Part shown: one piece after another, positions 12,635 through 15,543 of the stretch
Layout of the letters: each line of letters begins with the position of its first letter
Numbering within the stretch: the first letter of the stretch is position 1
Assembly: GCF_036365525.1 (NCBI RefSeq)
Contig: NC_090379.1
Coordinates: forward strand, 93,109,206-93,173,205
Direction of reading: 5' to 3'
Length of the DNA stretch: 64,000 nt
From: Heterodontus francisci
Lineage: Eukaryota
Translations under genes and position numbers: made by a program
Notes under the pieces: generated by a model
The model's input: only the letters and a program-made list of their open reading frames with translations
The model's database searches: none
Told to the model about the DNA's origin: nothing

Positions 12635-12637
12635 ACA

Positions 12638-13300
12638 TCAGCTGTTGCTGTTCTTTCTGAAGTTTTTCCCTCTCTGCATTCAGTTTCTATTGATCTGACA
12701 TCAGCCTGCTAACATACTGTTGCTTTTCTCAGGATGACCACTTTTGAGGCCTTGTCATTCTTGGAAAGTTCTGTCACTTCATCTCGAAGAGCCAACAGAC
12801 AATGTTGCAACTCATTCCTCCTCTGCCTCTTCAGGACATTGTGTGTCCTTCGCCTCTCCTGATCCTCTGCATCTGAAGGCCTGAGGCTCAAGGTCAAGAA
12901 CTCGGAGTACTTGGTCTCATGAAGATACCTGTCCATTCTGGCTCATTGTGGTGCTGGTGGTTCACTCAAGAGCAGAAGTGAAGGCGCGGTAGAGTTGTGC
13001 TGTTGCTGGATTTCCAGACTGCACCGTTTGATGCTGGTCAGAGCCTGCGAGCGGGTTGCAGTCCTTGGAGATTTCTCCTTGGCAATGCTCCTCACTGCCA
13101 GTCTTTGCTTCTCAGTCGTGACAATGTCAATCTTCTTCTGAGTCACTGGAGCATGAGGAAACACTGCCTGTTGACTAAAACTTCCACCATCTGAGTTTGG
13201 ATCTTCATTCTTTTGGTGTTGCATCTCTGAGAAGGGGCTGATATTCTCCAAACCAGAACCACTGAGATTCTCAAAGGATTGTGACTCAATGCAGGTACAC
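12638..13300 (-). pseudogene. myc: Intron-less Myc-family C-terminal pseudogene fragment (MBIIIb, MBIV, NLS, bHLH-LZ); paralog uncertain, mych/c-Myc-like
   Basis: Reconstructed reading: SSCSSDSEE/IDIVTTEKQR...IKRCSLEIQQQHNSTAPS...PPAPQ*ARMD...[79 protein letters not shown]. Two frameshifts (near 13131 and 12717) and two stops (12943-12945, near 12688). The upstream boundary is approximate. Confidence 0.92.
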
Positions 13301-15543
13301 TTGGTCTCTTCTGCTGTAATGCGTACCTTGGTGACCTCATGGATGGTCACGATGTTGAGGTCTTTACACGCAGGTAGTCCTGCCACTGCTGGTCCACTCG
13401 TGCCTACCATGTAGAATGCTTGTGGATTCCATGCCGACTTGCCATATTCGCATTGCATTGTCAGTATGCCACTGCAAGGGATGGGTGACCCATTGTATGC
13501 AGACAACTTGGCAGTTGTTGGTTGTATCATTGATTTCCAATGCCTCCGGTACATATCCTTCAGGATTCAGACCAGTAGGATATTTGCACTAGCTCCACTA
13601 GTCAATCTTAACCCTGAGTGTAACCCAGCTTTCTTTGGGCACATGATGTTAATGGAAGCAACAGCTTCCAGTTATTTGACTTCATCAACATGATGTGTCA
13701 GGTTCACAATGTGAAATGCCTGCTTGTCTTCTGGCTGAGAATTACTTCTCTCTGGGTCTTGTCTCAGATCTGTTTCGCTGTGGACTTTGTGTATCGACCT
13801 ACGTTTACACAGGCCTCTGGCGTCTTCTTTGCTGATGTTGCCTTATTGCTGGCCTGTCATCTGTTTGTTGGTGTCCTACCTTGGCTTCTGGCTGTGTCTT
13901 TGGACCCAGATTTCTTGCATAGGTGGACCCAATGTCGTTTTGCACTGCATGCCTTGTGCAGGTCACAAAATGCAGGACAACATCGCGGTGAGTGGAACCA
14001 ACCACACTTACCACACAGCTTCATACAGCTTGCTTGCTCTTTTTTTACCTAGTTATCATGCCAATACTGTTGGCTGCACCTAGTACTTGCAGATGCTGGT
14101 GTCCAGCTACAATGGCTTCATATTCCCTGCCTTCTCCCAGCAGTGCATCAATGCTGTGACCTTTCTTTTTCCCCCAAGAGATCTTTCTGAAACGCTTCAA
14201 TGGGTGTCAATCACCAGCTCCATTAGTTGCCCTGATAGCTCAGCTTCTGAAAAATTGCACACGTTGCCCTTACTATGGTATCTACTGACGAACTGGTCTA
14301 TTGATTCCTGTGGCTGTTACCTGTCGGACATCAATTCCAGGTGGTGAATCCTAAAATTCACTCCTAATCGAAGTTGGTCTTCCAGCACTTTCCATATCTT
14401 TGCGGGATCTTTCTGGTCCTCATCAGATAAGCCTGAGGTATTGATTCTGTGTGATACCTCATTTCCAACTGCTATCAGTATTTTTCAGCCTGACTTTCTG
14501 GTTCTGCAATCACGTGGTCCGTGAAACATAACCGCATTTTTTGTTTGAAAAGTTGAAACCTGGATAGAATATCCATGGCTTTCCGGTTCATGCTGGGAAA
14601 TTTGGTATCCATCTTTCTATAGTTCTTTTGCTTAAAACTTGTTTTGTGACTCTGTACTGTTTCTCCTTTAAGAAACTCTCTGTTATTTAGACTAGCTGCT
14701 TGGATTGAGAGGAGCAGGTGTTTTGCAGTGCTCTGTGTCTATCTTGCATGTAGCACTTAAGCTGGTCTGTTTACACAGCTGTTCACTAGACGGTTCAATT
14801 GCTTTATTTTTTTGCTAGCTTTAATTTATGTTTTTCATGCTCAGTTGGTATAATGGTATTTTTATAGCTGTGGCTGTGTGAATGGAAGCTCTTCTTCATG
14901 CTCGAGTGATTTAATGAGTTTTTAAAAAGCTTTGGCTGCGTGGATGAGGCACTGCAGAGATCGGGGTTTTCCCACACTTTTGCAATCGGACGCCTCCTGT
15001 AATGGCACTGAATTCGATTAGCCTGGAGAGGAGTCGGGTCTTCCCCCTTTTTTTTACATGGAATCTTTAGCAAAAATCAATCTTTTAAGCACTTCAAAGC
15101 CTGTTTTTTAAAAAACCAGTATCCTATGACCGTTGGCACAATGATTCACCGATTTACTTGCAGCCTATCGTTCTGAGCTGTCTTCTACAGCTGGAGGTAG
15201 GTTCTTTCTTCTGTCCACTTTTTGGGCCCATATTCCTTTTGAAATTTCTCTCCAGTGGATGTAGGAAAGGTCGTTTTCAAGGCTGTTTGACCTGTGGTCT
15301 TCAACTTAGACTTTGTCTTCTCATCACAGCTGCCACCATGTAATGTGTTCTTCATGTTGTCTGATTCAACACAAATGAGATGCATGTAGTCCAGTTTTGC
15401 TGAAGATCTCAAACAGCTTTATTACAGCTAAACTATTATATACAGTACAGAGCAAACCGTTTACAGAACCTTACTCTCTTAGTTCATTAGCATACTAAGA
15501 TCTTAAAGGGACATCACTCTTAAAGGTACATCCCAATTCAATA
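13300..15543 (-). mobile_element. Gypsy/Ty3 (Mag-like) LTR retrotransposon 5' half: LTR, PBS, leader, gag, protease
   Basis: LTR 15543-15339 ends ...ATTACA; PBS TGGTGGCAGC at 15338-15329; gag ATG at 14612 (MDTKFPSMNRKAMDILSRFQLFKQKM...IWKVLEDQLRLGVNFRIH); Zn knuckles CGKCGWFHSPRCCPAFCDLHKACSAKRHWVHLC near 14010-13910; protease LRVKID/SGASANIL near 13615-13578 and LSAYNGSPI...PAVAGLPACKDLNIV. Confidence 0.9.
15339..15543 (-). repeat. 5' LTR of the Myc-bearing Gypsy element
   Basis: Reverse complement aligns by eye with the solo LTR at 30932-31093 plus 35190-35284 (gtccctttaagatct.agtatgctaatga; tttgctctgtactgtatataatagtttagctgt.aataaa; catctcattt...ttaca). Outer boundary approximate. Confidence 0.85.

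Follow-up and report, generated by a model that had tools for sequence, protein, structure and literature searches.

Heterodontus francisci harbors a Gypsy LTR retrotransposon family in which the spliced 3' two-thirds of the host gene mych replace, in frame, the reverse transcriptase (RT)-RNaseH-integrase core; this probably goes back to a single capture, and the family was then probably copied in trans with the Myc piece as a passenger. One decayed, 3'-truncated copy of this Gypsy LTR family lies in the window, i.e. the whole analyzed stretch of 64,000 nucleotides. Captured genes are known from LTR retrotransposons in small copy numbers, and oncogene capture by infectious retroviruses is a somatic dead end; here a Myc cassette in an env-less Gypsy element became a successful germline family. 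A single genome preserves the donor gene and the parent element together with the two junctions and the derived forms in a dated series. This fossil time series allows one to ask if a carrier benefits from a captured growth gene, is harmed by it or is indifferent to it.

Layout of the window copy

On the minus strand (15543-12638) the window copy reads LTR, primer-binding site (PBS), leader, gag with two Cys/His knuckles, protease and Myc:

15339..15543, minus strand: 5' LTR, 205 nt, with an internal deletion of about 56 nt in the alignment to the family LTR of about 258 nt
15325..15338, minus strand: primer-binding site, complement of the 3' end of host tRNA-Leu(TAG/AAG)
14613..15324, minus strand: leader, aligned to the leaders of chimeric and pol-bearing copies
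13846..14612, minus strand: gag, interrupted by stops and frameshifts, two Cys/His knuckles at about 14015-13917
13330..13640, minus strand: aspartic protease, assigned by motif and position, frame broken at the active-site motif
13282..13290, minus strand: short-form 5' junction, a 9-nt sequence common to the element linker and captured mych
13138..13290, minus strand: captured mych, 3' part of the first coding exon found, 80% to the host gene
12638..13137, minus strand: captured mych, last coding exon, 88% to the host gene, joined without the 1.7-kb intron

The original prediction had read this order from the letters, and it was borne out by the alignment of family LTRs, the knuckles and Pfam and PDB matches to Myc. 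As it had also stated, no RT, RNaseH, integrase or 3' LTR is present in the window copy, which ends about 10 nt short of the family's 3' junction. Within the last coding exon we found an MBIIIb-like IDIV, an MBIV-like QQQHN and the bHLH-ZIP. The 207-aa frame 13566-12943 gave a weak match to PF01056 (Myc_N, E=4e-4), the frame 12942-12712 matched the Pfam HLH model (E=5e-9) and the top PDB match of the Myc part was human Myc (E=8e-16). Support for the protease came from one family copy that aligned weakly, including the catalytic motif, with a retroviral-like aspartic protease (E=0.06) and from its position between gag and RT in the parent element; the protease gave no match in Pfam and, with a profile of seven sequences, none in the PDB. 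For gag, zf-CCHC_3 matched in parent copy L114 (E=2e-4), and two Cys/His arrays were found in the window frame 14048-13857 as well as in parent frames. Two arrays in the nucleocapsid are described as a feature of the Mag clade in excerpts of PMC2577118; they are not unique to Mag, and the Mag-type assignment of the original prediction is a putative one.

The in-frame state of the window copy had been ascribed to a single indel near 13131. A deletion is indeed located there, but through-reading depends on a second, compensating small deletion at about 13178, with an off-frame stretch between the two. Further damage comprises a stop codon (TGA, 12945-12943) and the loss of 9 nt near 12905 and of 2 nt near 12719, the latter shifting the frame of helix 2 and the zipper; in the His/Glu/Arg triad, Lys (12831-12829) stands in place of Glu. 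The frame of the original fusion had been called uncertain. The junction itself (13290-13282) is in frame, likewise in the family, and 30 of 40 window-type copies showed no net frameshift within 60 nt of it, in support of an in-frame ancestral fusion.

Elsewhere in the window, near-perfect hairpins at 16640-16806 and 50058-50365 consist of head-to-head copies of one short repeat (arms of 83 nt, 96%, and 142 nt, 87%), and a separate 25-bp tandem array is located at 46505-46663.

Size and spread of the chimera family

Chimeric copies occur in three nested forms: long, short (the type of the window copy) and shortest. A DNA search of the 6.0-Gb genome with 12630-13500 yielded 4251 candidates. All 40 that were scored spanned the junction, and the 39 located outside the window were 83–87% identical to the window query. 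In 6-kb stretches of these 39 copies we found a 3' LTR in 37 (about 190 nt after Myc), a 5' LTR in 28 and both in 26. Distinct TSDs had been named beforehand as a check of whether the chimera had transposed: among the 22 full-length copies with both ends aligned, 5-bp TSDs were perfect in 13 and carried one mismatch in 6 (0–1 mismatch in 19), compared with 2 perfect and 8 one-mismatch cases among 462 cross pairs. Together with the shared junction and the 3' LTRs this confirms the chimera as one copy of a transposed family. PBS and PPT are constant across the family. Natural frames of 200 or more aa across or downstream of the junction were found 17 times; in L060 a natural frame runs from the protease through the zipper.

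Exact 20–21-mers across the junctions occurred genome-wide 58 times for the long, 144 times for the short and 80 times for the shortest form, and 347 times for the pol-bearing parent, with 0 matches for the reversed controls. A bHLH search of the genome gave 3146 candidates. From the exact long or short junction at 14 of 113 sampled places on C1-C15, a recapture estimate of about 1,600 Myc-bearing copies was obtained, which is rough and likely low. Altogether the chimera family occupies at least 282 sites, likely over a thousand. The copy samples are biased toward copies resembling the queries.

LTR-LTR distances (K2P) had a median of 0.112 for short copies (n=23) and 0.146 for long copies (range 0.115–0.166, n=7); those of parents were 0.09–0.18. 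By distance and count the long forms are older and fewer than the derived forms. A mutation rate of 7e-10 is given in excerpts of PMC10587355, per generation and not per year. Gag-protease haplotypes, read from 63 bimodal columns, fall into two main groups and a subgroup, each containing chimeras and pol-bearing copies (the gag-protease tree covers 77 of 96 sequences, 19 with short cover being left out, and has weak support). Long forms are mostly located in one group and short forms mostly in the other; L055 and L068 are among the cross-overs. Repeated recombination with co-packaged RNA of successive helper subfamilies, by template switching onto their 5' halves, may have produced this pattern.

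A caveat of the original prediction was that a Gypsy insertion into an existing myc retrocopy, followed by deletion, would give the same layout. Taken by itself, the window copy, which lacks the 3' LTR and TSD, is compatible with this; the junctions, LTR pairs and TSDs of the family exclude it. Taken more broadly, with segmental duplication or an assembly artefact as further sources, such an origin has a practically negligible chance of being correct: dispersed loci have distinct flanks and TSDs, the cargo lies inside the element between the start of pol and the integrase tail, and contigs bridge the junction in runs of two other species labels. Contigs of runs X5 and X13 (organism B, from two studies) and of run X12 (organism C) bridged the window-type junction with 31 or more letters on each side, and the shortest-form junction was present in all four sequencing runs compared. 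One contig of the shortest form in run X13 had a depth of about 2000. X5 and X7 are putative RNA runs, but contigs of host mych map to this stretch too, and depth is therefore not taken as evidence of expression; neither are small shares of matching words in other runs. For one pair of long-form copies, L136 and L137 (C2, 163.68 and 163.83 Mb), which are located 150 kb apart and carry an identical unusual basic region, segmental duplication is likely rather than transposition.

At least seven RefSeq proteins of H. francisci annotated as 'myc' or 'N-myc proto-oncogene protein-like' (P0001, P0003, P0005, P0009, P0010, P0012 and P0105) are copies of the transposon family; they could otherwise be read as an expansion of shark Myc genes. 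P0012 represents the shortest form, with an open bHLH-ZIP lacking the triad His and Glu, and has four accessions, hinting at transcript isoforms.

A solo LTR of the family was also noticed in the window (30932-31093 and 35177-35284, plus strand; 88–89% to short-form LTRs). It is split by a later insertion of about 4.1 kb, and its outer ends carry a perfect GAAGG duplication.

Donor gene, parent element and capture junctions

The original prediction had recognized the C-terminal part of a Myc protein; this holds, with the paralogue now specified as mych, not c-Myc or N-Myc. By sequence, the cargo is assigned to mych, fourth among the Myc paralogues of vertebrates. Its closest full-length protein is H. 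francisci mych (P0002, 79%), compared with a bHLH identity of about 63% to host c-Myc and N-Myc, and last-exon DNA is 88–90% identical to host mych. Five annotated copies come out as sister to host mych in the protein tree (support 97/94), and both tree and identity place the cargo with the mych orthologues and separate from c-Myc and N-Myc. The latter two were rejected as donors. A genome search with Pfam Myc_N (119 of 1624 candidates scored) gave 4 matches at E<=1e-12, all of them c-Myc or N-Myc exons.

Host mych (G000:C16) has two coding exons which match P0002 exactly and are separated by a 1.7-kb GT..AG intron. The exon-exon join is exact in 60 of 79 copies; none of 40 short copies kept the intron, and the four among them without an exact join have losses of 1–3 nt. 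The claim that a spliced host myc had been captured is thereby verified. The captured part comprises residues ~121–357 of 366, so that relative to fish mych the N-terminal 120 and the last ~9 residues are missing, and changes at invariant sites have been added on the element lineage. The capture appears to date to about halfway along the H. francisci lineage's own branch: where host mych departs from three or more of four shark orthologues, the long copies agree with the host at 8 sites, with the orthologues at 7 (two of them mixed) and with neither at 2. Among 51 protein matches (30–583 aa) from annotated genomes no chimeric protein was found in another species. Zebrafish mych is zygotically activated after the MBT by Pou5f1, according to excerpts of PMC3958507, and by analogy such activation would be a plausible setting for capture. 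In the mych model of Scyliorhinus torazame (P0006) about 25 residues before the basic region are repeated, possibly an assembly artefact.

A search with the linker behind the protease distinguished 30 loci, 18 of which run into RT and 12 into mych. The pol-bearing parent uses the identical LTR family, tRNA-Leu PBS and PPT as the chimera, has TSDs and measures about 5.3 kb without insertions. A TG..CA LTR pair, tRNA PBS, PPT and short TSD were found as expected of Ty3/Gypsy elements, as was the order protease-RT-RNaseH-integrase, with a weak match for the protease; in L107 and L114, RVT_1, RT_RNaseH and rve follow in Gypsy order. The RT relatives found are mostly unnamed. Because the integrase frame reaches to about 150 nt before the 3' LTR, the parent has no room for env.

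The window also contains a remnant of a distant Gypsy pol (about 22730-27310, plus strand; 63–68% DNA identity to parent RT, RNaseH and integrase), part of which (23084-24060) is repeated at 51922-52876, and the region 5552-7599 is 84% similar to a LINE-like insertion within parent copy L114. Outside the window, G000:C34 carries at 18.73–19.00 Mb a tandem array of more than 80 units of about 3.05 kb, in all of which the tRNA-Leu 3' motif occurs; for one of them tRNA-Leu(TAG) was confirmed.

At the 5' capture junction the parent and host mych share GGATGCA (7 nt), coding for Asp-Ala in both. At the 3' junction CAAATT (6 nt) is common to both, 14 of 19 letters are alike and the peptides read KFSEMQ and KFEQMQ. 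Both junctions are in frame, and 2163–2198 nt of pol (in four of six parents; two carry insertions) gave way to 673–708 nt of mych. In the short form another 129 nt, lying between two 9-nt repeats, are gone, by which its 5' junction is shorter than that of the long form with the frame kept. Most of the integrase tail is missing as well; this 3' loss shifts the frame after the zipper. In the shortest form (L031 1639-1889, L161-L180) the end of the protease is joined in frame to mych past MBIIIb, leaving 249 nt less than in the window type, and a 3' LTR is within reach in 16 of 20. All forms have a common 3' junction, and therefore one capture is likely. Two independent captures, of the long and the short form, were rejected given the identical 3' junction and shared element-specific letters.

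We propose capture by two template switches during reverse transcription. A mych mRNA would have been co-packaged in particles of the parent, and RT would have jumped from the integrase tail on the PPT side to mych and back at the start of RT. The pol-bearing parent probably served as helper thereafter, copying the chimera in trans. When parent frames and mych match by chance over 5–8 nt, the frame is kept in 35–45% of cases, and all four junctions bounding or upstream of the cargo are in frame, an event of about 3% by chance. Conjecturally, the in-frame state was favored as one long ORF would keep the RNA stable or translation-coupled for packaging.

Comparable LTR-mediated retrocopies are described in excerpts of Tan et al. 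2016 (PMC5131818), including Drosophila CG17604_r, cases from zebrafish, chicken and mouse, human FAM8A1 in HERV-K and maize Bs1. The shark family shares with them a spliced host mRNA in sense orientation in an LTR element, short common sequence at both switch points and secondary non-autonomous retroposition with common switch points; intron-less host sequence, shared switch-point letters, secondary transposition and an autonomous partner with the same LTR were all found. It differs in copy number (1–5 for Bs1 in the same excerpts), in its three nested forms and repeated backbone exchange with helpers, in having both junctions in frame with pol and in carrying a member of a proto-oncogene family. 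In the open-access literature we found no report of a gag-protease-mych family; it may already be listed as an unnamed repeat in Repbase or Dfam.

Fate of the Myc cargo

The cargo starts downstream of LPTPPQSP and DCMW of P0002, which we take to be the Myc box I-like and Myc box II-like motifs of mych. The cargo thus lacks Myc boxes I and II; it keeps MBIIIb- and MBIV-like motifs and the bHLH-ZIP, with MBIIIb dropped in the shortest form.

Selection was assessed by dN/dS with CpG columns masked; six of the 79 copies with poor last-exon cover were left out before residue and dN/dS counts, as were three duplicate places. Singleton dN/dS was about 1 in all regions, which we read as copies dead on arrival. 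For shared variants the cargo gave 0.75 in short forms, 0.79 in long forms and 0.94 pooled (binomial P=0.36), compared with 0.37 for gag and 0.43 for protease in the same copies (P=5e-5). The contrast between cargo and gag/protease was not significant (Fisher P=0.27), so there may be weak purifying selection on the cargo. The signal in gag and protease may be inherited from helpers via recombination. Two lower values were rejected as signs of constraint: the raw dN/dS of 0.63–0.70 among copies is a CpG effect, with about 1 for singletons after masking, and the value of 0.22 for copies against the present host gene mostly represents host-lineage evolution, as the copies still agree with the orthologues at 7 sites.

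According to excerpts of PMC7226237, the His/Glu/Arg triad specifies the E-box and Glu to Gln abolishes binding. Retention of the triad Glu drops from 11 of 33 long copies to 3 of 40 short and none of 20 shortest ones; elsewhere the residue is mostly Lys (31 of the 40 short copies). His persists in 18 of 33 long copies but in 5 of 40 short ones, and has otherwise mostly given way to an Arg codon or its CpG decay. The earliest long copies have an intact triad and almost no element-derived amino-acid changes. Between them and the short form we counted 9 amino-acid and 7 silent changes (one of 20 shortest copies was left out of this analysis). Six of the 9 fall on positions that do not vary among 8 orthologues (63 such sites out of 223; P=0.017, post hoc) and two fell in the 3-residue triad (P=0.004, post hoc; P=0.09 for the whole 13-residue basic region). 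The four in-frame joins and the changes at invariant sites suggest that a protein was made and mattered, which weighs against a mere passenger.

MC29 and MH2 are acutely transforming, helper-dependent retroviruses with v-myc, in which replicative genes are replaced and v-myc is fused to gag. The presence of v-myc in MH2 is stated in excerpts of PMC13297096. The likeness to MC29 seen by the original prediction stands for architecture, a spliced myc replacing replicative genes in frame with gag and a helper being needed, but not for function: the activation domain is missing, DNA-contact residues are lost and there is no sign of selection for Myc function. The shark carrier is an env-less Gypsy retrotransposon spread in the germline, its helper has no env, and the cargo is mych without Myc boxes I/II and with the E-box triad mostly lost. 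It is very improbable that a Gag-protease-Myc fusion spread the element by spurring proliferation of germline cells. Replacement of pol by a spliced myc in frame, helper dependence, the intact triad of the earliest long copies and the high copy number would fit such a driver. However, the capture starts at residue ~121 of 366, past the MBI- and MBII-like motifs (for the role of MBII see excerpts of PMC7226237), the triad is lost in the most numerous forms, MBIIIb is also gone from the shortest, and no purifying selection was seen in the cargo. For the later forms this explanation is largely refuted. Since the activation domain is absent and key DNA-contact residues are lost in most copies, the Myc piece was likely carried along as a passenger, a reading in accord with most of the data.

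Selection may possibly have acted to disarm or repurpose the Mych fragment. If the polyprotein was translated, the protease would free a fragment without activation domain, and lineages in which E-box contacts were lost, first by the change of Glu to Lys and later of His to Arg, would be favored, either since the intact fragment was harmful to the germ cell or since a non-binding Max partner was useful to the element. The falling retention of triad Glu and His from long to short and shortest forms, the greater age (K2P 0.146 vs 0.112) and smaller number of the long forms (58 vs 144 and 80) and the enrichment of lineage changes at triad and invariant sites are in line with this, as is the role of the triad. 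For E47, excerpts of PMC11286708 give the replacement of the basic-region Glu by Lys (E555K) as the strongest dominant negative, sharing with the cargo a base-contacting Glu changed to Lys and a retained HLH-ZIP. However, there are two events only, with the P=0.09 given above if the whole basic region is the target, the derived forms changed their backbone too, which alone could explain their success, and the cargo is known here from DNA. We consider it unlikely, though less so than the driver, that a Max-sequestering, DNA-binding-dead Myc fragment evolved stepwise and its carriers out-bred the intact form. If it were true, bullhead sharks would carry over a thousand natural Myc inhibitor cassettes, some still transcribed. 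The Omomyc-type Myc bHLH-ZIP would by analogy be a comparable dominant-negative variant, the change in the cargo having arisen on a transposon lineage.
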